From Pseudorhodobacter sp. PARRP1 (GTDB taxonomy: Bacteria > Pseudomonadota > Alphaproteobacteria > Rhodobacterales > Rhodobacteraceae), in contig NKIU01000008.1 in the NCBI GenBank assembly GCA_002256245.1, forward strand, positions 53,333-117,332: a DNA stretch of 64,000 nucleotides, in the 5' to 3' direction. Under the pieces are notes generated by a model. It was not told the DNA's origin. It did no database searches and was given only the letters and a program-made list of their open reading frames with translations. Below are positions 5,377 to 19,167 of the stretch, in pieces. Position 1 is the first letter of the stretch. Every line of letters begins with the position of its first letter. A program made the translations under genes and the position numbers.

Positions 5377-6441
5377 CTAAAACGCGCCGCGTGACAGCCA
5401 GCGGGCCAGCATCGGCCCCAGCAACAGCACCAGCAAGAACCGCGCCATATGCATCACCATCACAAACGCCACATCCACCGGGGTAGAAGCCGCGATGATG
5501 GCGATGGAATCCATGCCGCCGGGGCTGGTGGCCAGATAGGCCGTCAGCGGATCAACCCCGGCAAACTGCACCAGTGCCACAGCCGCCGCGCCGCAGACCG
5601 CGATCAGCACCAGAATTGACGCGAACACCCGCAGAAACGCCCGCCGCGCACCGCGGATTGTGGCGCGGGTAAAGCGCAATCCAATCGCCCAGCCGATGGC
5701 GGCATAGGTCAACGCCAGCAGCCAAGGCGGCAGATAAAGCGGCATCCACCCGGTGTGCGACAGCGCCATGCCGGTGAAGATCGGCAAAAGAAAGCTGCCT
5801 CCGGGCAGGCGCAGCCGCCCGCCTGCGAAGGCCAGCACCACCGCCAAAGCCACGGTTTGGGCGACGCCAAGCGCGGGCATGGCAGGAAACCAGATGATCT
5901 CGGGCGCAGGCCCCGCCGTCACGCCAAACAGCCGCGCAACGACAGTGGCCACCACCGCCACGCAGGCCACCCGCATATACTGCATGAAGGCCACCAGCCG
6001 CATATCCGCGCCATAAGCCCCCGACAGCAGCGTCATCGCGGCAGCAGCCCCGGGCGATGATCCCCAGATGGCGGTGGTGCCCGGCAGCGCGCCAGACCGC
6101 GCCAAAAGCCAGCCCAGCAGGGACGAGGCGAAGATGGTAAACAGCGTGCCTGCCACCACGATCGGCCAGTCTGCCGCCACCTCGGCCATCAGCGACAGCG
6201 GCAGCACCGAGGCCACCATCAGCCCGACCAGCCCCTGTGCGGCGGTCATCACAGGGGCAGGCAGGCTGACGCCATAGCCCTGCACCGCAAGGATAATCGC
6301 CGCGACCATCGGCCCGAGCAGCAAGGCGGCGGGCAGGTGCAGCAGCTCAAACCCGGCGGTGATCAGGGCCGACAGCAGCACCAGAACGCACCAGCGCAGC
6401 GCGCGGTTGGACGGGGATGGGGGCGGGGGCTGCGGTGACAA
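5377..6441 (-). CDS. AbrB-family (AidB regulator-type) duplicated membrane protein
   Basis: Two homologous hydrophobic halves with SSPGAAAAM and TSPGGMDSI motifs; TTG start at 6441 with AAGGA 6 nt upstream (ORF open to 6498). Confidence 0.8.
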   Translation of the reverse strand: MSPQPPPPSPSNRALRWCVLVLLSALITAGFELLHLPAALLLGPMVAAIILAVQGYGVSLPAPVMTAAQGLVGLMVASVLPLSLMAEVAADWPIVVAGTLFTIFASSLLGWLLARSGALPGTTAIWGSSPGAAAAMTLLSGAYGADMRLVAFMQYMRVACVAVVATVVARLFGVTAGPAPEIIWFPAMPALGVAQTVALAVVLAFAGGRLRLPGGSFLLPIFTGMALSHTGWMPLYLPPWLLALTYAAIGWAIGLRFTRATIRGARRAFLRVFASILVLIAVCGAAAVALVQFAGVDPLTAYLATSPGGMDSIAIIAASTPVDVAFVMVMHMARFLLVLLLGPMLARWLSRGAF

Positions 6442-6563
6442 GGTCTGTCCTTTGGGCAGGCGTTGCGCCTTCCTACGCCGCGCACTGGGCAAGGGCAATG
6501 CACTGGACAGCGCCCGCCCTGCCTGCCAGTTTGGCGAAAACCGCCCGCAGTCAAGGCCCTTCG

Positions 6564-6869
6564 ATGCAGCACACCGCCCCGCTTGATCCGGCAGCCGCGC
6601 ACAGCGAACGCTTTGCGATCTGCGGCGATGTGGGCGCTGCGGTCTTTGCGCCTTGGATCACGCGCCATGCGCGCCGTCTTGGCCTGCGCGGCGCGATTTT
6701 GCGCCATGATGCCACGCGGTTGGAGATGGTTGTCACCGGCCTGCCCGACCTGCTGGATGCGATGGCGCTGGCCTGTAGCCTTGGCCCACGCGAGGTGTTG
6801 GTGGACCGGATTGATCGCGCGCCGATGCCCTTGCAAAACGCGAACGAATTTGCTTCGACTGCCGCTTAA
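6564..6869 (+). CDS. Acylphosphatase-like small protein (degenerate active site)
   Basis: RFAICGDV...FAPWITRHARRLGLRG...LEMVVTG...MALACSLGP pattern follows the acylphosphatase fold, but VQGVGFR and the catalytic Asn are not conserved. Confidence 0.6.
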   Translation: MQHTAPLDPAAAHSERFAICGDVGAAVFAPWITRHARRLGLRGAILRHDATRLEMVVTGLPDLLDAMALACSLGPREVLVDRIDRAPMPLQNANEFASTAA

Positions 6870-6883
6870 CATATGATCATATG
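6870..6883. promoter_or_regulatory. Candidate repressor operator (perfect 14-bp palindrome)
   Basis: CATATGATCATATG, an AT-rich palindrome in GC-rich DNA, 117 bp upstream of the Rieske gene start. Confidence 0.55.
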
Positions 6884-6999
6884 CAGAAGGGGCGCTGATT
6901 TTTTGGGCATCTGCCGCGGTGCGGGCTGGGCTGCTTTGCAATAGCCCTTCCGCTATCGCAGCTTGGCATGACAAATCAGCGTCGGAATGTGGGGAAAAC

Positions 7000-7608
7000 A
7001 TGTCGATCTGGATTGCCAACGGTCTGTCGCAAGATTTGCCGCCGGGCGTTGTGATGGCCGGGGCTTGGCGGGGGGCCGAGCTTGCGATCTGGCGCAGCGC
7101 CTCGGGGCGGCTCTCGGCTTGGGGGGATCGCTGCCCGCATCGCGGAATGCGGCTGTCGCATGGGTTTGTGCGCGGTGAGACGCTGTCGTGCATCTATCAC
7201 GGTTGGGTTTATGGCAGCGACGGCGGTTGTCGGAAGATCCCCGCGCATCCGGCGATGGTGCCCCCTGCCACGATCAAGGCCGAGGTTTATCAATGCGTTG
7301 AGGCGGGTGGGGTGATCTGGGTCGCCCCTGCGGCTGTTGAAAGTGACGCGCCCGATCTGGCGGGGCTGACTCCGGTGCGCTCGGTCACTTTGCGCGCGGA
7401 TCGCGGCGCTTTGGCGCGGGTGCTGGCGGGGGCTGTGGCCGAGGGCGATCTGTGGCGGGTGCCTGCGCTGGGCGCGGTGCTGGCGCTGCAAGACCGGGCG
7501 GAAGGGCTTGGCCTGCACGCGCTTTGCCATGATGCTGCGCAGCGCGTGGCGGTCAGCCGCTGGTTGGACGGCGTGTTGCGGCTGGCGGAAGAGGGGGCTT
7601 TGGCATGA
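7000..7608 (+). CDS. Stand-alone Rieske [2Fe-2S] protein of a split Rieske oxygenase
   Basis: DRCPHRG and SCIYHGW give the complete Cys-x-His/Cys-x2-His ligand set; the roughly 90-aa C-terminus has no mononuclear-Fe motif and no reductase domain. Confidence 0.85.
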   Translation: MSIWIANGLSQDLPPGVVMAGAWRGAELAIWRSASGRLSAWGDRCPHRGMRLSHGFVRGETLSCIYHGWVYGSDGGCRKIPAHPAMVPPATIKAEVYQCVEAGGVIWVAPAAVESDAPDLAGLTPVRSVTLRADRGALARVLAGAVAEGDLWRVPALGAVLALQDRAEGLGLHALCHDAAQRVAVSRWLDGVLRLAEEGALA

Positions 7609-8447
7609 TTGCGGCGGCGGTGCTGAACGAATGGTATCCGGTGGCGATGGCGGCGATGGTCGGGCCGTGGCCGGGGCGGGCCACCACGCTTTTGGGCCAT
7701 GATATCAATGTGTTCTCGGAAGGCGACAAAATCATCGTGCGCGGCGCGGGCGGCGATCTGGCGGTGACGCTGGCCTATGGCCATGTCTGGGCCTGCCCCG
7801 GCACCCCGGCGCATGATCTGTTCCCGGTGCCAGAGGCCGCACAGCCGGGGCGGCGGCTGGTCGATTGCGGCGCGGTGCGGGTGAAATGCTCGCCGCTGCG
7901 GGCGGTCGAAAATTTCCTCGATATCGCGCATTTCCCGTTTGTGCATACCGACGTTTTGGGTGCTGAGCCGCACACCGAAGTGGGGCGATATGAGGTGCAA
8001 ATCCGCGAGGACAGCGACGAGGTTTGGGCGACCAAGGTGCATTTCTACCAACCCCAAGCCGCGAAATCGGCGGCGGGGGGGATTGTGACGGAATATATGT
8101 ATCGCGTCGCCGCCTCGACCTCGGCGGTGCTGTATAAAACCTGCCCGAACAACCCCGATGAATGGGACGTGATCGGGATTTTCGTGCAACCCCTGACCGA
8201 GGAGTTGTGCGAGGTCTGGCCGTGGATGGCGCTGTTCGATGACACCACGCCGCAGGCCGATCTGATCCAGTTTCAGCAGATGATCTTCCTGCAAGACCGC
8301 TCAATTCTGGAAAACCAGATCCCGCGGCTGTTGCCTTTGGACCCCGGCAAGGAGATTCCGACGCAGGCTGACCTCACATCAATCGCCTATCGCCGCTGGC
8401 TGAAACGCAAGGGGCTGACCTATGGCGCGCAGATGGTGGCGGCATGA
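7605..8447 (+). CDS. Rieske-less mononuclear-iron oxygenase subunit (VanA-type catalytic domain; NdmC-like N-demethylase)
   Basis: LNEWYPVA start and a vestigial Rieske region without Cys/His ligands; ENFLDIAHFPFVH (2-His motif plus bridging Asp), QDRSILENQ, YRRWL; 280 aa. Confidence 0.8.
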   Translation: MIAAAVLNEWYPVAMAAMVGPWPGRATTLLGHDINVFSEGDKIIVRGAGGDLAVTLAYGHVWACPGTPAHDLFPVPEAAQPGRRLVDCGAVRVKCSPLRAVENFLDIAHFPFVHTDVLGAEPHTEVGRYEVQIREDSDEVWATKVHFYQPQAAKSAAGGIVTEYMYRVAASTSAVLYKTCPNNPDEWDVIGIFVQPLTEELCEVWPWMALFDDTTPQADLIQFQQMIFLQDRSILENQIPRLLPLDPGKEIPTQADLTSIAYRRWLKRKGLTYGAQMVAA

Positions 8448-9100
8448 AACTGTATGATTATGTGCTAAGCGCCAGTTGCTACAAAATCCGCCTGATGGCG
8501 GCGCTGATGGGCGTCAAGCTGCAGACCGAGGCGGTGGATTTCCACCCCGGTCGCGCGCATCGCAGCGCGGATTTCCGCAGCCTGAACCCCGCCGGAACGC
8601 TGCCGGTGCTGGTGGACGGTGATCTGGTGCTGACCGAAAGCACGGCGATGCTGGTGTATCTGGCACGGCCCGAATGGCTGGGGCAGAGCGCGGCAGAAGC
8701 GGCGCAAGTCCAGCAATGGCTGGCATTTTCGGCACGGCTGGGGGCCAGTTTGGGCATGGCGCGGCTGCATGACATGCTGCTTTATCCCGGCGATATTGAT
8801 GCGTTCCGGCGCGCAGGCGTGGAGTGTCTGCGCGAGCTTGACGCGCATCTGACCGAGGCGCGCTTTGCGGGGCGCACCTATCTGGTGGGCGATACCCCCA
8901 CCATCGCCGACATCGCCTGTTTTCCCAACGTGGCACTTGCCCCCGATGGCGGCGTTGGCCTCGACGATTACCCGTCGATCCGCCTGTGGTCGCGCGCCAT
9001 CCGCGCCCTGCCGGGGTTCATCGAGATGCCCGGCATCCACCGCCTGCACGAGTTGAAACCCGCGCCCGAGGCCGTCCCACCGCTGGAGACGCTGCTATGA
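8444..9100 (+). CDS. Glutathione S-transferase family protein (NdmE-like by context)
   Basis: MKLYDYVLSASCYKIRL, GTLPVLVDG, LTESTAML, TIADIA motifs; ATGA-coupled on both sides. Confidence 0.85.
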   Translation: MKLYDYVLSASCYKIRLMAALMGVKLQTEAVDFHPGRAHRSADFRSLNPAGTLPVLVDGDLVLTESTAMLVYLARPEWLGQSAAEAAQVQQWLAFSARLGASLGMARLHDMLLYPGDIDAFRRAGVECLRELDAHLTEARFAGRTYLVGDTPTIADIACFPNVALAPDGGVGLDDYPSIRLWSRAIRALPGFIEMPGIHRLHELKPAPEAVPPLETLL

Positions 9101-10455
9101 GCATCCTTCTGAAAAACTGCGCGGCGATTGTGCCCTCGGCATCCGATCTGGTGCTGGCGGGGCAGGATATGCTGATCGAGGGCAAGCAGATTGCCGCCAT
9201 CGGCCCCAACCTGCACGCGCCGGGGGCCGAGGTGATCGACGCCTCTGGCTGGTTCATCTACCCCGGCTTGGTCAACACGCATCACCATTTCTTTCAATGC
9301 TTTGTGCGCAACCGCGCCGATCTGGATTGGACCAAAATGTCGGTGATCGAATGGCTGGACCTGATCTATCCGATCTTCTCACGCCTGACCGAGGATCAGT
9401 TTTACCACGCCTCTGTCGTGGCTCTGGCCGAGTTGATCAAACACGGCTGCACCACGGCGTTCGATCACCAATACAACTTTCCCCGCCACGCAGGCAGCCG
9501 CATCGTGGATCGCCAGTTTGAAGCCGCCGATCTGTTCGGCATCCGCTTTCATGCGGGCCGGGGCGGCAATACCCTGCCGAAATCCGAAGGCTCCACGATC
9601 CCCGATGAGATGCTGGAAACCACGGATGAATTCATCGCCGATTGCGCGCGGCTGATTGACGCCTACCACGATGCCAGCCCCTTCAGCATGCGGCAGGTGG
9701 TGGTCTCGCCCTGCCAGCCGGTGAATTGCTACAAGGATACCTTCGTGGAATCCGTGCGGCTGGCGCGTGACAAGGGCGTGTTCCTGCACACCCATGTCGG
9801 TGAGGGCGAAAGCCCGGTGATCGCGGCGCGCACCGGGCGCAGGACGGTGCAATACCTTGAGGAGATGGGATTTTCCGGCCCCGATACCTTCTATGCGCAT
9901 TGCTGGGAATTGAGCCATGCCGAACTGGCGCGCATGGCTGCGACCAACACAGGCGTGTCGCATTGCCCCGAGCCTGTGTATCTGGTGGGGGCCGAAGTCA
10001 CCGATATTCCAGCGATGCAGGCGATGGGCTTGCGGATTGGTCTGGGCTGCGATGGGGCTGCGTCGAATGACAATTCCAACCTGATGCACACCATCCATTC
10101 GGGTTACATGCTGCAATGTCTGGTCGCCAATACGCGCCAGCATCCCGTGCCGGAACCAAGCGCGTTCCTTGGCTATGCCACGCAGGGCGGCGCAGACCTT
10201 TTGGGCCGCCGCGACCTTGGCCGCCTTGCCCCCGGCATGGCGGCGGACCTGTTTGCCATCGACACCCGCCGTCTGGAATATGTCGGCACCCGGCACGATC
10301 CGGCCAGCCTGATCCCCAAGGTGGGCATCGGCCGCCCGGTTGATATGACGATGATCAACGGCCGTATCGTCTGGCGTGACGGCCAATTCCCCGGCCTTGA
10401 TGAGCGCGATCTGTTCACAAAAGCCGAAGCATCCTTCCACTGCATCCTGTCCTGA
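9097..10455 (+). CDS. Metal-dependent amidohydrolase, 8-oxoguanine/guanine-deaminase-like
   Basis: PGLVNTHHHFFQ, FHAGRG, HTHVGE, GLGCDG, PGMAAD motifs; ATG at 9097 overlaps the GST stop. Confidence 0.85.
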   Translation: MSILLKNCAAIVPSASDLVLAGQDMLIEGKQIAAIGPNLHAPGAEVIDASGWFIYPGLVNTHHHFFQCFVRNRADLDWTKMSVIEWLDLIYPIFSRLTEDQFYHASVVALAELIKHGCTTAFDHQYNFPRHAGSRIVDRQFEAADLFGIRFHAGRGGNTLPKSEGSTIPDEMLETTDEFIADCARLIDAYHDASPFSMRQVVVSPCQPVNCYKDTFVESVRLARDKGVFLHTHVGEGESPVIAARTGRRTVQYLEEMGFSGPDTFYAHCWELSHAELARMAATNTGVSHCPEPVYLVGAEVTDIPAMQAMGLRIGLGCDGAASNDNSNLMHTIHSGYMLQCLVANTRQHPVPEPSAFLGYATQGGADLLGRRDLGRLAPGMAADLFAIDTRRLEYVGTRHDPASLIPKVGIGRPVDMTMINGRIVWRDGQFPGLDERDLFTKAEASFHCILS

Positions 10456-10479
10456 TCCCACAATCCCAAAGGAAACCCG

Positions 10480-11571
10480 ATGACCCAAACCCGCCGCTCT
10501 TTCCTGAAAACCTCGCTTGCCGCCAGCACCGCCTTGGCTTTGCCGCTGCCCGCCTTTGCCGAAGGCGAAGTGCTGAATGTGGCCCTGATCGTGCCCTCGC
10601 CCGCAGCCGACGTCGGCTGGTCGCACACGCTGGAACTTGGCACCAAGGCGTTGGAGGCCGAATATGGTGACAAGGTCAAGGTCACGCTGCTGGAGAATAT
10701 CGCCGAAGGCCCGGATGCCGACCGGATTATGAACAAGACCGTGGCCGACGGGAACACCTTCCTGATCCTCGGCTCGTTTGGCTATATGAACGGCGGGTTG
10801 AAACTGGCCAAGGCGCATCCGGAAGTGTCGATCCTGCATGCCTCGGGCTATCAGGTGGCCCCGAATTTCTCGCCGTTTGGCGCGCGCTATTATCAGGGCA
10901 CTTACCTGATGGGGATGGCCGCGGCGTCCTTGTCAAAGTCGAAGAAACTCGGCTGCGTGGGGGCCTTTGCGATCCCCGAACTGATCACCTCGATCAACGC
11001 CTTCACCTTGGGGGCGCAATCGGTGGACCCAAGCATTGAGGTGTCGGTGGTCTGGGTGAACTCTTGGTTCGATCCGGCGTCGGAACAAGAGGCCGCCAAG
11101 GCGCTGCTGGCGCAGGGCTGCGATGTGGTGTTCTCGAACGCGCAGGACACGCCTTCGGTGGTGGCGGCGTGTGAAGAGGCCGGGGCCTATGTGTTCAACC
11201 TGAACTCGTCGATGAAAACCTATGCGCCGAAGAAATATCTGGGCGTGGTGGGCACCGACTGGGCGCCGTATTTCAAGGCATCCGTCGCCGCACATCTGGC
11301 GGGCACCTTTGCCGGGGCAAGCGCGTGGCTGGGCATGGCCGACAACTGCGTGTTTGTCGCCGACTGGAACCCCGATATTGCCCCCGATATGGTGGCGAAG
11401 ATCGAGGCCGTTCACGCCACCCTGATGGACGGCAGCTTCAGCCCGTTCACTGGGCCTTTGACCAACCAAGACGGGGCCGAGGCTGTCGCTGCGGGTGTCA
11501 CCTTGGGCGATGACGCGATCCTGTCGATGGATTGGCATGTCAAGGGCGTGACCACGCCGCTGCCGAAGTAA
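10480..11571 (+). CDS. BMP-family (purine/nucleoside) ABC substrate-binding protein
   Basis: Twin-arginine leader TRRSFLK; DVGWSH, SFGYM, VWVNSWFDP motifs of the BMP/PnrA family. Confidence 0.88.
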   Translation: MTQTRRSFLKTSLAASTALALPLPAFAEGEVLNVALIVPSPAADVGWSHTLELGTKALEAEYGDKVKVTLLENIAEGPDADRIMNKTVADGNTFLILGSFGYMNGGLKLAKAHPEVSILHASGYQVAPNFSPFGARYYQGTYLMGMAAASLSKSKKLGCVGAFAIPELITSINAFTLGAQSVDPSIEVSVVWVNSWFDPASEQEAAKALLAQGCDVVFSNAQDTPSVVAACEEAGAYVFNLNSSMKTYAPKKYLGVVGTDWAPYFKASVAAHLAGTFAGASAWLGMADNCVFVADWNPDIAPDMVAKIEAVHATLMDGSFSPFTGPLTNQDGAEAVAAGVTLGDDAILSMDWHVKGVTTPLPK

Positions 11572-11575
11572 ACCC

Positions 11576-13066
11576 ATGGCCGCGCTGTTGTCTTTGCAAG
11601 CTGTGTCAAAGCGTTACGGCGCGGTGCAGGCCAATGCCGGGATCGACCTTGTGGTTGATCCCGGCTCGATCCATGCCATTCTGGGCGAAAATGGCGCGGG
11701 CAAATCCACGCTGATGAAGCTGATCTATGGCGTGGAATCCCCCGATGCCGGGGTGATGCTGTGGAAGGGCCAGCCGGTGAACCTTGCCAGCCCAGCCGAG
11801 GCGCGGGCGCATGGCATCGGCATGGTGTTTCAGCATTTCTCGCTGTTTGAAACGCTAAGCGTGGTGCAGAACATCGCGCTGATCGTGCCGGGCAAGCAGG
11901 CAGACCTCGCCCGCCGCATCCGGGCCTTGGGCGCGGAATTTGGCCTTGAGGTTGACCCCGAGGCGATGGTGCACGCGCTGTCGGTGGGAGAGCGGCAACG
12001 GGTGGAAATCATCCGTTGCCTGCTGCTGAACCCCGAACTGCTTATTCTGGACGAGCCGACATCAGTGCTGCCGCCGCAAAGCGTGGCGCGGTTGTTTGAG
12101 ACACTCAGGGCCTTGCAGGCGCGCGGCATGGCGATCTTGTTCATCAGCCATAAACTGGAAGAAATCAAAGAGTTATGCGACACCGCCACCATCCTGCGGG
12201 GTGGCCGCGTATCGGGCCGTGTCGATCCGCGCGGCCATTCGGCCAAGGATCTGGCAACGCTGATGATCGGCCGCGCCATGCCGCCGCCGTTGCCTGCAAC
12301 CGCGCAGGACCCGGGCGAGGCGTGGCTGGAACTGGCGGGGCTCAGCTATCGCAACGATGATCCGTTTGGCGTCTCGCTGCATGATCTGTCGCTACAGGCG
12401 CGCAGCGGCGAGATCGTTGGCATCGCGGGCATTTCCGGCAATGGCCAGCAGGAGTTGGCGGCGCTGATCTCGGGTGAAATCGCAGCGCAGGGCGCGGGGT
12501 TGCGGATGATGGGGCAGGGCGTGGGGCGTCTGGGCGTCGCCGCGCGCCGCCGTCTGGGCTTTGCCTTTGTGCCGGAAGAACGTTTGGGCCGCGGCGCTGT
12601 GCCGGAAATGTCTTTGGCCGACAACGCCTTGCTGACCGCCCATCGCGCGGGGCTGGTGGCGCGCGGCTTTATCCGTCGCGCGCCCGAGCGGGCCTTCACC
12701 GCCGCCATTATCACCCGCTATGACGTGCGCACGCCGGGGCCAGAGGCCGAGGCGGCGGCGCTGTCGGGCGGCAATCTGCAAAAGTTCATCATGGGGCGCG
12801 AAATGATGCTGGACCCCAAACTGTTGTTGGTGTCGCAGCCGACATGGGGCGTGGATATTGGGGCGGCCACCGAAATCCGCCAGCGCCTGATCGCGATGCG
12901 CAATGCGGGCGCGGCCATTCTGGTGATTTCCGAGGAGTTGGAGGAGTTGTTCCAGATCTGCGACCGCCTGCATGTGCTGCACAAGGGCCATCTGTCGCCG
13001 TCCCTGCCTGTGGCCGAGACCAATGCCGAGGCCGTGGGGGCCTATATGATCGGAAGTGCGGCATGA
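11576..13066 (+). CDS. Nucleoside-type ABC ATP-binding protein (two ABC domains)
   Basis: GENGAGKST, LSVGERQRVEI, second domain with LSGGNLQK and QPTWGVD. Confidence 0.92.
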   Translation: MAALLSLQAVSKRYGAVQANAGIDLVVDPGSIHAILGENGAGKSTLMKLIYGVESPDAGVMLWKGQPVNLASPAEARAHGIGMVFQHFSLFETLSVVQNIALIVPGKQADLARRIRALGAEFGLEVDPEAMVHALSVGERQRVEIIRCLLLNPELLILDEPTSVLPPQSVARLFETLRALQARGMAILFISHKLEEIKELCDTATILRGGRVSGRVDPRGHSAKDLATLMIGRAMPPPLPATAQDPGEAWLELAGLSYRNDDPFGVSLHDLSLQARSGEIVGIAGISGNGQQELAALISGEIAAQGAGLRMMGQGVGRLGVAARRRLGFAFVPEERLGRGAVPEMSLADNALLTAHRAGLVARGFIRRAPERAFTAAIITRYDVRTPGPEAEAAALSGGNLQKFIMGREMMLDPKLLLVSQPTWGVDIGAATEIRQRLIAMRNAGAAILVISEELEELFQICDRLHVLHKGHLSPSLPVAETNAEAVGAYMIGSAA

Positions 13067-14133
13067 GGATCAGCTTTGTCCGCCGGGATCACGCCTCGCG
13101 CCCCGCCATGCTGCTGGCCCCGGTGGTGGCCTTTGCCTGCGCGATTGTGGCGAGCGTGATCCTGTTCACCGCCTTGGGCAAAGCCCCCGGCCAAGCCTTG
13201 TATTCGCTGCTGCTGGAGCCGTTTCTGACGTGGTATAACTTTTCCGAAGTCTTGCTGAAAATGGCCCCGCTGCTGCTGATTGCCCAAGGGCTTGCCATCG
13301 GTTTTCGCGCCAATGTGTTCAACATCGGGGCCGAGGGGCAGTTGATTATCGGAGCCATCGCGGCTTCGGCTTTACCGGTCTGGTATCCGCAGGGCGACAG
13401 CGCTTTGATGCTGCCTGCGATGCTGGTGATGGGGGCAGGGGCGGGGATGGCTTGGGCCGCGATTGCCGCCATGTTCCGCACAAGGTTCAATGCCAATGAG
13501 ATTCTGGTGACGCTGATGCTGTCGCTGATCGCCGCGCAAGTGCTGAACTATCTGCTGCTGGGCCCGTGGAAAGACCCGCATGGCTTCAACTTTCCGCAAA
13601 GCGTGATGTTTCCCGATGCCGCCCTGCTGCCGATCCTGCTGCCGGGCACGCGGGTGAATATCTCGCTTTTGTTCGCGCTGGTGGCAAGCGTGTTGGCCTA
13701 TGTGCTGATGCGCCACCGCTTTGCCGGGTTTCAACTGCTGGTGGGTGGGCTTGCCCCCCGCGCGGCTCGCTATGCCGGTTTCAGTGAGGCCCGTGCCATT
13801 TGGCTAAGCCTGCTTTTGGGTGGGCTTGCGGCAGGGCTGGCGGGGGCTGCGGAGGTGGCGGGGCCGCTGGGGCAGTTGCAACGCTCGGTTTCCCTTGGCT
13901 ACGGCTATTCCGCGATCATTGTGGCTTACTTGGGCGGGTTGAACCCTTTGGGCATTGTGGTGTCGGCCTTTGTGATGTCGGTGATTTATATCGGCGGCGA
14001 CAATGCGATGGTGTCGGCGGATTTGCCGGTGGCCGCCGTCTGGGTGTTTCAGGGCCTGCTGCTGTGCTTTTACCTCGCCGGCCTGACCTTCATCCGTCAC
14101 CGTGTCAGCTTTAGTCGCAAGGCCCTGCCATGA
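13063..14133 (+). CDS. Nucleoside-type ABC permease
   Basis: FNIGAEGQ, NEILVTLML, GYGYSAIIVA motifs; ATGA overlap. Confidence 0.9.
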   Translation: MRISFVRRDHASRPAMLLAPVVAFACAIVASVILFTALGKAPGQALYSLLLEPFLTWYNFSEVLLKMAPLLLIAQGLAIGFRANVFNIGAEGQLIIGAIAASALPVWYPQGDSALMLPAMLVMGAGAGMAWAAIAAMFRTRFNANEILVTLMLSLIAAQVLNYLLLGPWKDPHGFNFPQSVMFPDAALLPILLPGTRVNISLLFALVASVLAYVLMRHRFAGFQLLVGGLAPRAARYAGFSEARAIWLSLLLGGLAAGLAGAAEVAGPLGQLQRSVSLGYGYSAIIVAYLGGLNPLGIVVSAFVMSVIYIGGDNAMVSADLPVAAVWVFQGLLLCFYLAGLTFIRHRVSFSRKALP

Positions 14134-15041
14134 ACGCTGTTGATTTCATTCTGGCGGGTATGCTGGCCGCCGCCACGCCGATGTTGCTGGCGGCCTTGGG
14201 CGAGATGGTGGTGGAGCGATCCGGCGTGTTGAACCTTGGGCTGGAGGGGATGATGGCCCTGGGTGCGGCTTTGGGGTTTATCACCACCTACAGCACGGGC
14301 AGCCATGCCTTGGGCTTTGTGGTGGCGGCGTTGGGCGGGGCGGCGCTGTCGCTGCTGTTTGCGCTGATCGTGCTGGGGTTTGTCGCCAATCAGGTGGCGG
14401 CGGGGCTGGCGATCGGGATTTTGGGCACCGGGCTGTCGTCGCTGTTTGGCAAGAATTTTGAAAGCCTGACGATTGACGGTTTGCCGAAGCTGGCGCTGCC
14501 GGGGCTGTCTGATCTGCCGGTGGTGGGGGTGTTGTTTGTGCAGGATGCGGTGGTCTGGGCCACCGCTGTGCTGGCGCTGGCGATCTGGGCGGTGATGACC
14601 CATTCGAAACTTGGCCTGATCATCCGCGCGGTGGGCGAGAACCCGCATGCGGCCCGCGCAATTGGCTTTGGGGTGCTGCGGGTGCGCTGCGGCGCGATTG
14701 CGTTTGGCGGCGCGCTTGCGGGCATCGCCGGGGCTTATGCGTCAACGGTTTACACGCCGCTGTGGGCCGATGGCATGATCGCCGGGCGCGGCTGGATCGC
14801 GCTGGCGCTGGTGGTGTTTGGCACCTGGATGACGGGCCGGGTGGTGTTTGGCGCGGTGCTGTTTGGTGCGTTGTCGCTGGGCGAGTTGACCACGCAAGCG
14901 GCGGGGGTGAACATCCCCTCGCAACTGTTGGCTTGCGTGCCCTATGTCGTGACGATTTTGATGCTGGCGGTGATTTCCTCGAACCGCAGGCGGATGCGGC
15001 TGAACACGATTGCCTCACTCGGCCAGCCGTTCGAGCGTTGA
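14130..15041 (+). CDS. Nucleoside-type ABC permease
   Basis: ERSGVLNLGLEGMM, RAVGENP, GRGWIALALV motifs. Confidence 0.9.
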   Translation: MNAVDFILAGMLAAATPMLLAALGEMVVERSGVLNLGLEGMMALGAALGFITTYSTGSHALGFVVAALGGAALSLLFALIVLGFVANQVAAGLAIGILGTGLSSLFGKNFESLTIDGLPKLALPGLSDLPVVGVLFVQDAVVWATAVLALAIWAVMTHSKLGLIIRAVGENPHAARAIGFGVLRVRCGAIAFGGALAGIAGAYASTVYTPLWADGMIAGRGWIALALVVFGTWMTGRVVFGAVLFGALSLGELTTQAAGVNIPSQLLACVPYVVTILMLAVISSNRRRMRLNTIASLGQPFER

Positions 15042-15114
15042 TGCGGGCGGGGGTTTTGCCAACCCCCGCACCCCCGCTTGGTGACCGTTCTGAAGTCGTC
15101 TCGTTTGTGGCAGA

Positions 15115-15163
15115 CCCCGGGGGCTCGCCCCCGGACCCCGAGGATATTTGAGAACGGATGAAA
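15115..15163 (-). repeat. TCATC-N8-9-AAATATCC dispersed repeat, copy a
   Basis: Reverse complement tttcatccgttctcaaatatcctcggggtccgggggcgagcccc matches copies at 18600, 24716, 24764, 51345. Confidence 0.7.
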
Positions 15164-15170
15164 CGCGGCG

Positions 15171-15818
15171 CTATTCGAAGGGTTCGTAGTGCGGGTTCGC
15201 TGTGGGCGGGGCTTTGGCCGCTTGGCGGGCGAGGATTTCGACAAAGCTGCGTCCGGTCTTGATCTCGGCGTGCAGCACCACTTGGGCTGCGGCGCGGGCA
15301 TCTTCTCCGGCGTCATGGTGGTGGAACTGCAGCGACAGCGCGGTTTTCAGATGGCCCAAACCGTGGCCGCCACGGCCCTTGAACTCGGGCCAGGCGCGGC
15401 GGGCGATGGTGACGCTATCGACCCAGTGCAGGCTGGGCACATCGAGGCCATGCCAGCCGCAAGCCGCCGCCACCGCGCGTTCGTCAAAGCGCGAGTGTTG
15501 CACCATGGGTTGCTGCGCCATCAGGGGCGCAAGGGCTGCGATCACTTCGGGAAACAGCGGGGCGTCGCGCACCATCGCCGCGTCAATGCCATGCAGTTGG
15601 GTGTTGAAGGGCGAGAACGCCTCTGCGGGGTTTACCAGCAGGCTGAAGTTGTCGATCTGCCCCCAGTCATCGACGCAGGCAAAGCCCATCTGGCAGATGC
15701 TATGCGCGTTGCGGTTGGCGGTTTCGACATCAAAAGCGATGAAGCGATAGGGCGGGCGCAGGCGTTCTGGCAGCAGCGGGTGGGGCAGCAGCGGGTGGGG
15801 CGGCAGCACGGGCGTCAA
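15171..15818 (-). CDS. DEDDh 3'-5' exonuclease (DnaQ/epsilon-like)
   Basis: FDVET, HSRFD, DSVTIAR, HHDAGEDA motifs; TTG start overlaps the uraH stop. Confidence 0.82.
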   Translation of the reverse strand: MTPVLPPHPLLPHPLLPERLRPPYRFIAFDVETANRNAHSICQMGFACVDDWGQIDNFSLLVNPAEAFSPFNTQLHGIDAAMVRDAPLFPEVIAALAPLMAQQPMVQHSRFDERAVAAACGWHGLDVPSLHWVDSVTIARRAWPEFKGRGGHGLGHLKTALSLQFHHHDAGEDARAAAQVVLHAEIKTGRSFVEILARQAAKAPPTANPHYEPFE

Positions 15819-16168
15819 CTGCCGCGATAGGTCGAATAGGCGAAGGGCGAGATCAGCAGCGGCACATGGTAATGTGCCTCGGCATCCGCCACGCCGAAGC
15901 GGATCGGGATTTCATCCAGAAACAGCACCTCGGCACTGGTCTGACCCGTGCTGCGCAGGTAGTTGCCCGCGCAAAACACCAGCTCATAGCTGCCCGCCGT
16001 CAGCGCCTTGCCTTCCAGCATGGGCGCATCGGTGCGGCCATCGGCGTTGGTCACGGTCTCGGCAATCTTCTTGTGGCTGTTGCCGCCGACCCGGTAGAGC
16101 ATGATCTTCACCCCCGCCGCAGGCTTGCCGCGCGCCGTATCCAGCACATGCGTTGTCAACTTGCCCAT
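15815..16168 (-). CDS. uraH: 5-hydroxyisourate hydrolase (transthyretin-like)
   Basis: LTTHVLDT, TNADGR, HYHVPLL and C-terminal YRGS signature. Confidence 0.95.
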   Translation of the reverse strand: MGKLTTHVLDTARGKPAAGVKIMLYRVGGNSHKKIAETVTNADGRTDAPMLEGKALTAGSYELVFCAGNYLRSTGQTSAEVLFLDEIPIRFGVADAEAHYHVPLLISPFAYSTYRGS

Positions 16169-16323
16169 CATCGCCCCCGTTTTCTGCCGCGCGTATTTCT
16201 GCCAACCTAGCCAAACTTGCCCCTTGCCGCAGCCCCTGCCAAGCCGCAAAACTCCTTTCGGGATTATTTGATAAAACCTTTAGGATCTTCGATATAGTTT
16301 CGCCGAAGAAGAAGGAGAGTTTG

Positions 16324-17739
16324 ATGCCCCGCTACCCCCGTGATTTCCGTGGCTACGGCCCCGATGCCCCTGATGCGGCCTGGCCGGGCGGTGCCAAGAT
16401 CGCGGTGTCGGTGGTGTTGAACTACGAAGAGGGCGGCGAGAACAACATCCTGCACGGCGATGGCAGCTCGGAAGCGTTTTTGTCCGATATTGCAGGGGCT
16501 GCGCCTTGGCCCGGTCAGCGCCATTGGAACATGGAATCGATCTACGATTACGGCGCGCGCGCGGGCTTCTGGCGGTTGCACCGGCTGTTCACCGGCATGG
16601 AGATTCCGGTGACGATCTACGGTGTGTCCACCGCTTTGGCGCGCAACCCCGAGCAGGTGGCCGCGATGAAGGCCGCCGGGTGGGAGATCGCGTCGCACGG
16701 GCTGAAATGGGTCGATCACCGCGACATGCCCCTTGCAGAGGAGCGTGCCCAGATCGCAGAATCCATCCGCCTGCACACCGAAGTCGTAGGCACACCCCCG
16801 CGCGGCTGGTACACCGGGCGCTGCTCGGTCAATACCGTCGATCTGACCGCCGAGACCGGGCAATTCGACTGGATTTCCGACACTTACGACGACGATCTGC
16901 CCTATTGGCGCGAGGTCGGCGCGCGTGATCAGTTGGTGATCCCCTACACGCTGGAAGCCAACGACATGCGCTTTGCCACAGCGCCGGGTTACATCGAGGG
17001 CCAGCAGTTCTTCCAATACCTGAAAGACAGCTTTGACACCCTTTATGCCGAGGGCTGCGAGGGCCGCGCGAAGATGTTCTCGATCGGTCTGCACTGCCGC
17101 CTGATCGGACGCCCGGGCAAAATCGCAGGGCTCAAGCGCTTCCTCGACTATGCAAAATCCCACAATGACGTGTGGTTCCCCCGCCGGATCGAGATCGCCG
17201 AACATTGGGCAAAAACCCATCCGCACAAACGCTTCGCACGGCCTTCTCAGATGACACGCGAAGCTTTCGTTGCGGCTTATGGTCCCATTTTCGAACATTC
17301 ACCCTGGATCGCCGACCGCGCCTTCGATCTGGAACTTGGCCCCGCCCATGACAGCGCCACAGGCCTGCACAACGCGCTCGCCCGTATCTTCCGCTCAGCC
17401 AGCCCCGCAGAACGCTTGGGCGTGCTGCAAGCCCACCCCGATCTTGCCGGCAAACTCGCCGCCGCCAAACAACTGACCGCGGCATCCAGTGCCGAGCAGG
17501 CCAGCGCAGCCCTCGATGCGCTGAGCGATGCCGAGCGTGCCGCGTTCCAAAGCCTGAACGCGGCTTATGTCGCCAAACACGGGTTCCCCTTCATCATCGC
17601 CGTGCGCGATAACACCAAGGCCAGCATCCTTGCGGCTTTTCACGCCCGCATCGCGCATGACACCGAAACCGAACTGCAAACCGCCTGCATGCAGGTCGAA
17701 CGTATCGCCGAACTCCGCCTGAAGGACATCCTGCCATGA
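16324..17739 (+). CDS. puuE: Allantoinase PuuE fused to C-terminal OHCU decarboxylase (UraD)
   Basis: LNYEEGGE, ESIYDYGARAGFWR, SHGLKW, SIGLHCRLIGRPG followed by FEHSPWIA, AHPDLAG, SSAEQ, FPFIIAV, ERIAELRL; AAGGAG RBS. Confidence 0.92.
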   Translation: MPRYPRDFRGYGPDAPDAAWPGGAKIAVSVVLNYEEGGENNILHGDGSSEAFLSDIAGAAPWPGQRHWNMESIYDYGARAGFWRLHRLFTGMEIPVTIYGVSTALARNPEQVAAMKAAGWEIASHGLKWVDHRDMPLAEERAQIAESIRLHTEVVGTPPRGWYTGRCSVNTVDLTAETGQFDWISDTYDDDLPYWREVGARDQLVIPYTLEANDMRFATAPGYIEGQQFFQYLKDSFDTLYAEGCEGRAKMFSIGLHCRLIGRPGKIAGLKRFLDYAKSHNDVWFPRRIEIAEHWAKTHPHKRFARPSQMTREAFVAAYGPIFEHSPWIADRAFDLELGPAHDSATGLHNALARIFRSASPAERLGVLQAHPDLAGKLAAAKQLTAASSAEQASAALDALSDAERAAFQSLNAAYVAKHGFPFIIAVRDNTKASILAAFHARIAHDTETELQTACMQVERIAELRLKDILP

Positions 17740-18578
17740 CCGCTTACTACTCCCCCCCCGGTGGGTTGCCCGCGCAAACCACGCTGATGACCGGCCGCGC
17801 GGTGTTCACCGACGCCTATGCCTTCATCCCGAAGGGCTGCTTTTCCGATATCCTCACCAGTTATCTGCCGGGCTGGCGCGGCACCAAACTGTGGCTGATC
17901 GCGCGGCCGATGTCGGGGTTTTCCGAAACCTTCAGCCAATATGTGATGGAGGTGCAGCCGGGCGGCGGCTCTGACGCCCCCGATGCCGAAACCGGGGCCG
18001 AGCATTTCCTGTTTGTCACCGGCGGCCTGATCACCCTCACCATCGACGGTGTCGGCTATGAGATGGACGCAGGCGGCTACGCCTTCATCCCGCCGGGCGC
18101 GAAATGGCAGCTTCTGGCCGAAGGCACCGAACCCGCCCGCTTCCACTGGCTCCGCAAACTGTATGAACCCGCGCCGGGCGTCGCGATCCCGCCCGCCTTC
18201 GTGATCAACGAAAAGGATGTCGCACTCAGCATGATGCCCGACACAAACGGCGTCTGGGGCACCACCCGCTTTGTCGATCCGACCGACGTGCGCTACGACG
18301 CCCATGTCAACATCGTCACCTTCCAGCCCGGCGGCGTGATCCCGTTTGAAGAAACCCATGTGATGGAGCACGGGCTTTACGTGCTGGAAGGCAAAGCGGT
18401 TTACAAACTGAACAAGGATTGGGTCGAGGTTGAGGCCGGCGATTTCATGTGGCTGCGCGCCTATTGCCCGCAAGCCTGCTACGCCGCAGGGCCGGGCCCT
18501 TTCCGCTACCTTCTCTACAAGGATGTGAACCGCCACGCCAACCTGCGCGGGCCCGGCGGCTATCGCCCGACGCGTTGA
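17736..18578 (+). CDS. allE: (S)-ureidoglycine aminohydrolase-like bicupin (AllE family)
   Basis: Bicupin with ETFSQY, ETHVMEHGLYVLEG, LRAYCPQ; ATGA-coupled to puuE. Confidence 0.85.
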   Translation: MTAYYSPPGGLPAQTTLMTGRAVFTDAYAFIPKGCFSDILTSYLPGWRGTKLWLIARPMSGFSETFSQYVMEVQPGGGSDAPDAETGAEHFLFVTGGLITLTIDGVGYEMDAGGYAFIPPGAKWQLLAEGTEPARFHWLRKLYEPAPGVAIPPAFVINEKDVALSMMPDTNGVWGTTRFVDPTDVRYDAHVNIVTFQPGGVIPFEETHVMEHGLYVLEGKAVYKLNKDWVEVEAGDFMWLRAYCPQACYAAGPGPFRYLLYKDVNRHANLRGPGGYRPTR

Positions 18579-18599
18579 AGCAAATTTGACTAAAATTTG

Positions 18600-18654
18600 T
18601 TTCATCCGTTTCTAAATATCCCACGGGGAGCGCGAGGGGTGTGAAACCCCTCGC
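18600..18654 (+). repeat. TCATC-N8-9-AAATATCC dispersed repeat, copy b
   Basis: tttcatccgtttctaaatatcccacggggagcgcgagggg-tgtgaaa-cccctcgc, ending in a GC hairpin. Confidence 0.7.
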
Positions 18655-18678
18655 TTCGCCGCAAGCCCAAGGCGCACC

Positions 18679-19167
18679 ATGCAGACGATCCACCCCGAAC
18701 CCCTCACCGCCGCCGCCTTCGCCGCGTTCGGCGATGTGCTGGACGCCACAGGCGATTTCCGCCTGATCAATGACGGCATGTGCCAACGCCACCACGACCG
18801 CGCCCGCCTCGATTTCGCGCCCGAGGTCAGCCCCGACAACCGCGCAGGCCTGTCGATCTTTAACGCCGTCCCGCGCGGGCTTCCCTACAGCTTTGATCTG
18901 ATCGAGCGTCACCCCGAAGGCAGCCAGGCCTTTATCCCGATGACCCAGCATCCGTTTCTGGTGATTGTGGCTGCCAGCCCCAATGACAAACCCCGCGCCT
19001 TCCTGACCAATGGCGCGCAAGCGATCAACCTGCACCGCGGTATCTGGCACGGCGTACTTACCCCACTGCACGCCCCCGGCCTGTTCGCCGTGGTGGACCG
19101 TATCGGCCCATCAGCCAACCTTGAAGAACACCGCTATCTGCAACCCTGGACAGTCACGCCCGCGTAG
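18679..19167 (+). CDS. allA: Ureidoglycolate lyase
   Basis: EPLTAAAFAAFGDV, ERHPEGSQAFIP, INLHRGIWH motifs; purine cluster context. Confidence 0.9.
   Translation: MQTIHPEPLTAAAFAAFGDVLDATGDFRLINDGMCQRHHDRARLDFAPEVSPDNRAGLSIFNAVPRGLPYSFDLIERHPEGSQAFIPMTQHPFLVIVAASPNDKPRAFLTNGAQAINLHRGIWHGVLTPLHAPGLFAVVDRIGPSANLEEHRYLQPWTVTPA

Follow-up and report, generated by a model that had tools for sequence, protein, structure and literature searches.

Three N2,N2-dimethylguanine hydrolases, poNdmH (Pleomorphomonas oryzae), rbNdmH (MBD1203459) and hsNdmH (Haliea/Mangrovimicrobium), have been characterised (Drexler, Duran, Osuna, Sterner, ACS Catal 2026; PMC13054789). They convert the RNA-derived base N2,N2-dimethylguanine to xanthine and dimethylamine with kcat/KM values of 9.4e5 (rbNdmH), 5.4e5 (poNdmH) and 1.7e5 (hsNdmH) per M per s; the corresponding values on guanine are 260, 2200 and 1100 per M per s, guanine being 250-3600 times worse than N2,N2-dimethylguanine for rbNdmH and poNdmH. 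The enzymes are promiscuous, do not take the nucleoside as a substrate, and are defined by the residue signature CQNN (all PMC13054789). N2,N2-dimethylguanine was the pick from a panel of 24 compounds; a natural compound such as N2-methylguanine, N2,N2,7-trimethylguanine, or 7- or 1-methylguanine could equal or surpass it. We found no report in the literature of ring-methylated guanines (7-, 1- or 3-methyl) as tested NdmH substrates, and NdmH physiology is not addressed in the published papers, whose authors state that they are studying it. A second relevant system is NdmCDE of P. putida CBB5, which carries out the GST-dependent N7-demethylation of 7-methylxanthine. Here we describe a locus with likenesses to both, located in a 64-kb window (the whole stretch of DNA analysed).

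Assignment of the hydrolase gene

The reading frame of the hydrolase gene is free of stops, and its translation contains the motifs THHHFFQ (residues 61-67), FHAGRG (151-156), HTHVGE (231-236) and GLGCDG (315-320). All four had been pointed out in an earlier note on this DNA, as had the coupling to the GST gene, which we find as ctATGAgc: the ATG at 9097 shares bases with the GST stop codon TGA. Homologs are 451-465 aa long with N-termini at the position equal to the 9097 start, which argues for this ATG as the true start over the upstream GTG at 8986. Hundreds of these homologs show 75-96% identity, well above chance. The protein matches Pfam Amidohydro_1 (E 1.7e-47) and has every subtype III metal ligand and catalytic residue (H62, H64, H233, E236, H268 and D319), none of which varies among 189 homologs. 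By sequence, it is a member of the amidohydrolase superfamily, deaminase subtype III, of the mononuclear-metal kind.

Within the superfamily, the evidence points to NdmH. The protein shares 78.6% identity with rbNdmH and 74.5-76% with poNdmH, and is identical to the three characterised NdmHs at 16 of 16 catalytic, metal-binding, substrate-flanking and CQNN sites. The CQNN residues C206, Q207, N210 and N158 correspond to C213, Q214, N217 and N165 of poNdmH and are kept in 188 of the 189 homologs. The substrate-flanking W78, W86, Y91, Y126 and P293 and the catalytic Q67 correspond to W85, W93, Y98, Y133, P300 and Q74. In the phylogenetic tree, a long branch (SH-aLRT 99) parts the NdmH/AtzB clade from the 8-oxoguanine deaminases; the protein lies inside an alphaproteobacterial subclade with poNdmH and rbNdmH. 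Since hsNdmH falls in the sister subclade, the characterised enzymes bracket the protein on the tree, and it clusters with them rather than with 8-oxoguanine or guanine deaminases.

Orthology, residue conservation and a common operon position are thus observed here, and from them we infer the activity: with a probability of about 0.8, the gene encodes an NdmH-type N2,N2-dimethylguanine hydrolase. The earlier note had read the protein as a purine-type amidohydrolase of the 8-oxoguanine/AtzB subgroup, in agreement with our tree and profile matches, and had suggested a possibly new specificity. The specificity is real but already known, because the 2026 work established N2,N2-dimethylguanine hydrolase activity for orthologs that are 76-79% identical to the protein. 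The idea of an enzyme for methylated guanine survives in part: a methylguanine, and not guanine or 8-oxoguanine, is the preferred substrate, but it carries its methyls on the exocyclic N2 instead of a ring nitrogen. Dimethylamine would be the leaving group, where the note had proposed a deamination releasing ammonia.

A mechanism can be carried over from poNdmH. D319 would take a proton from the metal-bound water, H268 would pass it on to E236, and Q67 would stabilise the O6 oxyanion. The water would attack N2,N2-dimethylguanine, as the free base, at its C2, with the substrate lined by W78, W86, Y91, Y126 and P293, so that dimethylamine departs and xanthine is left. From the second shell, the CQNN residues probably shape a pocket that favours a dialkylamino leaving group over NH2.

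The operon and its proposed role

The hydrolase gene belongs to a nine-gene operon (Table 1).

Table 1. Genes of the cassette, with positions in the window, strand and basis of annotation
Feature	Position	Strand	Basis
Acylphosphatase-fold small protein, operon gene 1	6564..6869	+	Pfam PF00708, E 2.4e-7
Stand-alone Rieske [2Fe-2S] protein, ~202 aa	7000..7608	+	Pfam Rieske; CPH and CIYH ligands
Rieske-type oxygenase catalytic subunit, NdmC-like, own Rieske domain lost	7605..8447	+	Pfam VanA_C only
GST-fold protein, NdmE-like	8444..9100	+	Pfam GST_N/GST_C; stop overlaps NdmH start
NdmH ortholog, probable N2,N2-dimethylguanine hydrolase (amidohydrolase superfamily, subtype III), 452 aa	9097..10455	+	Identity, 16 sites, tree clade
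BMP-family periplasmic binding protein, TAT signal, purine-base type	10480..11571	+	Pfam Bmp, TAT_signal; AtzT match
ABC transporter ATPase, duplicated ATP-binding domains	11576..13066	+	Pfam ABC_tran, two stretches
ABC transporter permease 1	13063..14133	+	Pfam BPD_transp_2; ATGA 13063-13066 overlaps ATPase stop
ABC transporter permease 2, last cassette gene	14130..15041	+	Pfam BPD_transp_2; synteny

Along the operon, acylphosphatase-like, Rieske, NdmC-like, GST and NdmH genes are followed by the four genes of a BMP purine-base importer. Of 82 tabulated alphaproteobacterial loci, 81 are collinear with this arrangement, and the poNdmH locus of Pleomorphomonas oryzae shares all nine genes and their order. 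The GST gene is kept in 81 of the 82 tabulated loci and the ABC ATPase is syntenic in 79, and in 70 loci, as well as in that of P. oryzae, an acylphosphatase-like homolog immediately precedes the Rieske gene. The Rieske reading frame is open from 6919, with the ATG at 7000 as the likely start. The NdmC-like protein has the iron motif DIAHFPFVH, and its PDB matches, SxtT and GxtA, span the catalytic half only. Other arrangements exist: gammaproteobacterial NdmHs are found without oxygenase genes, and the hsNdmH cluster has neither a Rieske nor a GST gene. On pSymA of Sinorhizobium meliloti, an NdmC/D/E-like set and a BMP transporter occur without NdmH, so the NdmH and oxygenase modules occur independently. 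At gathering thresholds, Rfam matched neither a riboswitch nor any other RNA in the whole 64-kb window, and a promoter and terminator scan of 6300-15300 returned sites no more frequent than in shuffled sequence.

The operon suggests a role in the uptake of methylated guanine bases and their conversion to xanthine. The co-transcribed BMP-type ABC importer would bring in methylated guanine bases from the tRNA and rRNA turnover of other organisms, and NdmH would turn them into xanthine. Purine catabolism could then take over the xanthine, through molybdenum hydroxylases from elsewhere in the genome and the urate-to-glyoxylate genes that follow the cassette, and dimethylamine could be handled by an HODM-like enzyme that is likewise encoded elsewhere. 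The source genome, a Cypionkella, encodes both molybdenum hydroxylases and an HODM-like candidate dimethylamine monooxygenase; directly downstream of the cassette lie genes for HIU hydrolase, OHCU decarboxylase and allantoinase of the urate pathway. The tight tie of NdmH to the NdmC/D/E-like oxygenase is left unexplained by this role, because xanthine needs no demethylation.

Alternative readings of the locus

One way to account for the oxygenase is tentative, and we regard it as possible but rather doubtful: the operon may be an undescribed catabolic route for methylguanines, with NdmH and an unfused NdmC/Rieske/GST N-demethylase both working on the same imported molecules. The substrate could be N2,N2,7-trimethylguanine, which occurs in eukaryotic snRNA caps, or else m2,2G, m2G, m7G and m1G taken up together. 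Oxidation of the released dimethylamine by the oxygenase was also considered and ranked low, since the trio is homologous to parts of purine N-demethylases and the genome has its HODM-like candidate for that step elsewhere.

The earlier note had placed the hydrolase upstream of the oxygenase: 7-methylguanine (or its 1- or 3-methyl analogue) would be deaminated to a methylxanthine, which the NdmC/Rieske/GST oxygenase then demethylates to xanthine. We found nothing relevant in the literature on such a 7-methylguanine deaminase/demethylase pathway or on the NdmH operon. In favour of this order of events, NdmH is translationally coupled, in 81 of 82 tabulated loci, to three genes for homologs of NdmC, of the Rieske domain of NdmD and of NdmE; the promiscuity of NdmH and the fact that ring-methylated guanines are not stated to be in the published panel speak for it too. 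Against it, the orthologs prefer an N2-dimethylamino group over NH2 by 250-3600 fold, and the group released from 7-methylguanine, like that from guanine, would be NH3. The xanthine product needs no demethylase, and hsNdmH, with the same pocket residues and no oxygenase neighbours, prefers the same substrate; NdmH therefore does not depend on supplying one. The pSymA set likewise points to independent modules. We consider the proposal improbable as a whole, and possibly right in part: the range of NdmH may include ring-methylated guanines, with feeding of the demethylase as a secondary role.

An 8-oxoguanine deaminase making urate for the neighbouring urate-degradation genes is less probable still. 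The top NCBIfam model is indeed that of 8-oxoguanine deaminase (NF006055), and the top PDB matches, 7ww2 and 3hpa, are enzymes of the same name, followed by 2paj and TrzN; HIU hydrolase, OHCU decarboxylase and allantoinase genes follow downstream, and poNdmH acts on 8-oxoguanine in end-point assays of 24 h. However, the NF006055 score of 369.9 bits is below the cut-off of 532, identity to the P. aeruginosa enzyme is 35.5%, and 8-oxoguanine deaminases differ from the protein at the pocket sites W78, N158, Q207, N210 and P293. The same genome holds a closer 8-oxoguanine-deaminase paralog (on C24, 45.5% identity), which the tree joins to the P. aeruginosa enzyme, and hsNdmH has no 8-oxoguanine activity. 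The urate genes were set aside as pathway-defining, since among the tabulated loci they flank the cassette in Cypionkella alone.

Least credible, and practically dismissed, is a role as housekeeping enzyme for guanine deamination or as triazine (hydroxyatrazine) hydrolase: JGI homologs are named 'hydroxyatrazine ethylaminohydrolase', AtzB is 57% identical and NdmHs have weak activity on guanine and hydroxyatrazine, but kcat/KM is only 260-2200 on the former and ~40 per M per s on the latter, the protein has CQNN and not the SSII that makes AtzB a hydroxyatrazine hydrolase, it lies outside the GuaD clade with 116 and 113 bits against the guanine deaminase models TIGR02967 and NF006679 (cut-offs 375 and 351), and a canonical guanine deaminase (GuaD) is present on C10 of the same genome.

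Comparison with known systems

Assignment to NdmH corrects the database names 'hydroxyatrazine ethylaminohydrolase', '8-oxoguanine deaminase-like' and 'amidohydrolase' for a type of protein that is widespread in Rhodobacterales and Rhizobiaceae. It also shows that the enzyme described in 2026 belongs to an operon that is strongly conserved and encodes, besides, a purine-base importer and a caffeine N7-demethylase relative, a context absent from published work. Nitrogen recovery from modified RNA bases by soil and water bacteria thereby becomes directly testable.

The closest likeness is to poNdmH and rbNdmH, with which the protein shares the 16 residues and the clade; we observe no difference at the sequence level. 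The nine-gene operon is also that of poNdmH, except that the operon here additionally adjoins urate-catabolism genes. The 8-oxoguanine deaminases (Pa0142; 7ww2, 3hpa), likewise enzymes of purine bases, agree with the protein in fold, in metal ligands and in the Q/E/H/D catalytic set and provide the best structural template, but identity to them is 35-40% and the five pocket sites differ.

The earlier note saw a resemblance of the neighbours to NdmC, NdmD and NdmE, and this is borne out by 38-44% identity to the plasmid caffeine cluster of Paraburkholderia caffeinilytica CF1: 44% at the NdmC position (full length, p1), 42% over 205 aa between the GST and the protein at the NdmE position, and 38% between the Rieske protein and the N-terminal Rieske domain of the reductase at the NdmD position. 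The logic is that of NdmCDE: the catalytic subunit lacks a Rieske cluster, receives one in trans and has a partner of the GST fold. The Rieske domain here, however, is a free protein of 202 aa, unfused to a reductase, and unlike the caffeine cluster, the operon has no reductase, NdmA/B or formaldehyde-detoxification genes.

Two further likenesses lead to the atrazine plasmid, whose AtzB and AtzT both find their nearest characterised relatives in operons of this type. AtzB of Pseudomonas sp. ADP, a hydroxyatrazine N-ethylaminohydrolase, lies in one clade with the protein and shares the motifs HHHFFQ, FHAGRG and HTH-GE, yet has SSII in place of CQNN; it prefers hydroxyatrazine (2.4e5 per M per s), dimethylguanine being a poor substrate (820), and is thought to descend from an NdmH-like ancestor. 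AtzT (PDB 6pi5) is the best PDB match of the BMP protein (E 1e-81), and both carry a TAT signal. Six of the nine AtzT ligand sites are kept (S97, F98, T139, E165, W194 and N218), whereas Y45 is replaced by W, N169 by S and N220 by D, and there is an insertion of one residue. AtzT binds free guanine (PMC6834077), and an AtzT-like binding protein fits the uptake of a free base. The relationship of both proteins to the operon may be relevant to the assembly of the atrazine pathway.

Assignment of P0001 to the N2,N2-dimethylguanine hydrolases

The translated amidohydrolase P0001 contains all four motifs claimed for it in the earlier note (THHHFFQ at residues 61-67, FHAGRG at 151-156, HTHVGE at 231-236 and GLGCDG at 315-320), and the coupling to the upstream GST gene is visible as an overlap of its ATG with the GST stop codon TGA (ctATGAgc); the start position is the same as in homologs. 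The top NCBIfam model, 8-oxoguanine deaminase NF006055, falls short of its 532-bit cut-off at 369.9 bits, and guanine deaminase models are far under theirs. Among solved structures, 8-oxoguanine deaminases 7ww2 and 3hpa match best, followed by 2paj and TrzN. The sub-cut-off score and the structure matches place P0001 in the 8-oxoguanine deaminase/AtzB subgroup, as had been proposed, but outside the 8-oxoguanine deaminase equivalog. Database searches return many homologs at 75-96% identity in Cypionkella, other Rhodobacterales and Rhizobiaceae, named only 'amidohydrolase' or 'hydroxyatrazine ethylaminohydrolase'. With 96% identity to C. sinensis, the window is assigned to a Cypionkella genome.

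AtzB homologs of this kind have been characterised as N2,N2-dimethylguanine hydrolases (NdmH), which convert the free base N2,N2-dimethylguanine to xanthine and dimethylamine (Drexler, Duran, Osuna, Sterner, ACS Catal 2026, PMC13054789). The reported kcat/KM values (per M per s) for N2,N2-dimethylguanine and guanine are 5.4e5 and 2200 for poNdmH of Pleomorphomonas oryzae, 1.7e5 and 1100 for hsNdmH, and 9.4e5 and 260 for rbNdmH; NdmH has no activity on the nucleoside, and dimethylguanine is not turned over by P. aeruginosa 8-oxoguanine deaminase or canonical guanine deaminases (PMC13054789). Compared with the NdmH and AtzB sequences printed in the supplement of that paper, P0001 shows 78.6% identity to rbNdmH, 74.5% to poNdmH (76% against its database copy, P0190), 57% to AtzB and 56% to hsNdmH; identity to P. 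aeruginosa 8-oxoguanine deaminase is 35.5%. All residues named for poNdmH (PMC13054789) recur in P0001, uniformly shifted by 7 positions: the catalytic Q67, E236, H268 and D319, the substrate-flanking W78, W86, Y91, Y126 and P293, and the 'CQNN' residues C206, Q207, N210 and N158. With the metal ligands included, 16 of 16 sites are identical across P0001, poNdmH, rbNdmH and hsNdmH, and CQNN is kept in 188 of 189 homologs. By contrast, two 8-oxoguanine deaminases differ from P0001 at W78, N158 (M), Q207 (S), N210 (S) and P293 (S), and AtzB carries S, S and I at 206, 207 and 210, as well as I at 158 in P0001 numbering (PMC13054789).

A maximum-likelihood tree (64 sequences) shows a long branch (SH-aLRT 99) between the NdmH/AtzB clade and the 8-oxoguanine deaminase clade. 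P0001 lies in an alphaproteobacterial subclade with poNdmH and rbNdmH, and the sister subclade holds hsNdmH and AtzB; P0001 is therefore bracketed by characterised NdmHs. The finding is real, and P0001 is a plain ortholog of NdmH. The earlier view of a methylguanine-specific member of the subgroup fits this orthology, but the specificity is not new, having been published in March 2026 (PMC13054789).

In the same genome, C10:71243-72451 codes for a canonical guanine deaminase with 42-45% identity to GuaD of E. coli and P. oryzae, and C24 (about 189991-191274) for a separate 8-oxoguanine-deaminase-like protein, which is 45.5% identical to the P. aeruginosa enzyme and groups with it in the tree. 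P0001 thus represents a third specificity in the organism, which fits NdmH. A molybdenum-hydroxylase gene lies within about 6-25 kb of each of the two paralogs.

A conserved nine-gene operon

The P0001 gene is the fifth in a run of nine same-strand genes.

Genes of the NdmH operon (positions in the window)
Feature	Position	Strand	Remarks
Small acylphosphatase-fold protein	6564-6869	+	~100 aa; PF00708 E 2.4e-7; directly upstream of Rieske gene
Free Rieske protein	7000-7608	+	
VanA_C catalytic subunit without Rieske domain	7605-8447	+	
GST-fold protein	8444-9100	+	
P0001, amidohydrolase NdmH	9097-10455	+	452 aa; Amidohydro_1 E 1.7e-47 (Pfam)
BMP-family binding protein	10480-11571	+	
ABC ATPase	11576-13066	+	
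Permease	13063-14133	+	
Permease	14130-15041	+	

Collinear copies of the eight larger genes occur in 81 of 82 tabulated alphaproteobacterial loci, among which the cassette flanks vary between genomes. The only exception is Rubellimicrobium arenae (L070), where a 77%-identical NdmH occurs without the oxygenase and transporter genes. The acylphosphatase-fold protein is the ninth conserved member of the operon and has no obvious role; homologs occupy the corresponding place in 70 related loci as well as at the P. oryzae locus. Characterised poNdmH is encoded in the same nine-gene operon, which makes P0001 its positional as well as its sequence ortholog. In Rhizobium sp. L1K21 (L001, 6106-7691), a second amidohydrolase gene (431 aa), read in the same direction, stands ahead of the operon and its small first ORF (7407-7691). 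According to the authors who described NdmH, its physiology and genomic context are still under study (PMC13054789), and our literature search for a description of this context found no paper. The remaining novelty therefore lies in the operon and not in the amidohydrolase.

Relation of the hydrolase to the oxygenase

The Ndm-type context proposed for P0001 is sound at the sequence level. The reference for comparison was the caffeine cluster that Paraburkholderia caffeinilytica CF1 carries on plasmid p1: the VanA_C protein aligns along its whole length with the short NdmC-position oxygenase (44% identity), the GST shares 42% identity with the NdmE-position GST, and the free Rieske protein shares 38% with the N-terminal Rieske domain of the NdmD-position reductase. 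The p1 cluster comprises two full-length oxygenases, the short one, a VanB-type reductase, the GST and formaldehyde-detoxification genes.

The suggestion that P0001 deaminates 7-methylguanine to feed the demethylase does not describe the best reaction of the characterised orthologs, which is N2,N2-dimethylguanine to xanthine; it may be a side activity. Obligate coupling of NdmH to the oxygenase is not supported by the data. The product xanthine has no methyl group left. hsNdmH and its gammaproteobacterial relatives share the pocket residues of P0001, and hsNdmH also shares the substrate preference of poNdmH and rbNdmH, but their clusters (L083, L084, L085) contain no Rieske or GST gene. These clusters carry adenine-/adenosine-deaminase-like genes, allophanate hydrolase and a 2OG-Fe(II) oxygenase, with a HupE/UreJ-type membrane protein (HupE_UreJ_2) directly upstream of NdmH, and either purine nucleoside phosphorylase or xanthine dehydrogenase and urate-pathway genes nearby; they look like modified-purine catabolism with another transporter and another oxygenase. 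Conversely, a Sinorhizobium meliloti 1021 cluster (L088, pSymA 821318-838133) lacks NdmH but combines a tandem pair of NdmC-like genes (44% and 41% identity) with a fused NdmD-like Rieske-reductase of 588 aa, a GST (41%) and, in divergent orientation, the genes of a BMP ABC transporter. The two modules therefore occur independently. The most natural guess is that the oxygenase demethylates other imported methylguanines, or the xanthines formed from them, at ring nitrogens; N2,N2,7-trimethylguanine would require both enzymes.

The products of NdmH may pass to molybdenum hydroxylases (six catalytic domains in the genome), to the urate genes at 15815-19167 of the window—HIU hydrolase (-), a PuuE allantoinase-OHCU decarboxylase fusion, a bicupin and ureidoglycolate lyase—and to a HODM-like candidate dimethylamine monooxygenase (C10:373227-374036). 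Among the tabulated loci, the urate block adjoins the cassette in Cypionkella only. The region just past the operon (15171-19167) begins with an RNase T-family exonuclease (-), followed by this urate-to-glyoxylate block, and its bicupin is ureidoglycine aminohydrolase-like.

Importer and the atrazine pathway

The best matches of the operon binding protein are AtzT (6pi5, E 1e-81) and Brucella 3s99. AtzT, which is encoded on the atrazine plasmid, has a KD of about 110 nM for free guanine, and the 3s99 structure contains a purine (PMC6834077). Six of nine AtzT ligand-site residues are kept in the operon protein, the three changes being Y45 to W, N169 to S and N220 to D. The importer would accordingly suit uptake of a guanine-like free base, which fits the finding that NdmH does not act on the nucleoside. 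NdmH is presumably the ancestor type of AtzB; with a binding protein closest to AtzT, the nearest characterised relatives of two atrazine-pathway proteins are thus found together in one operon type.
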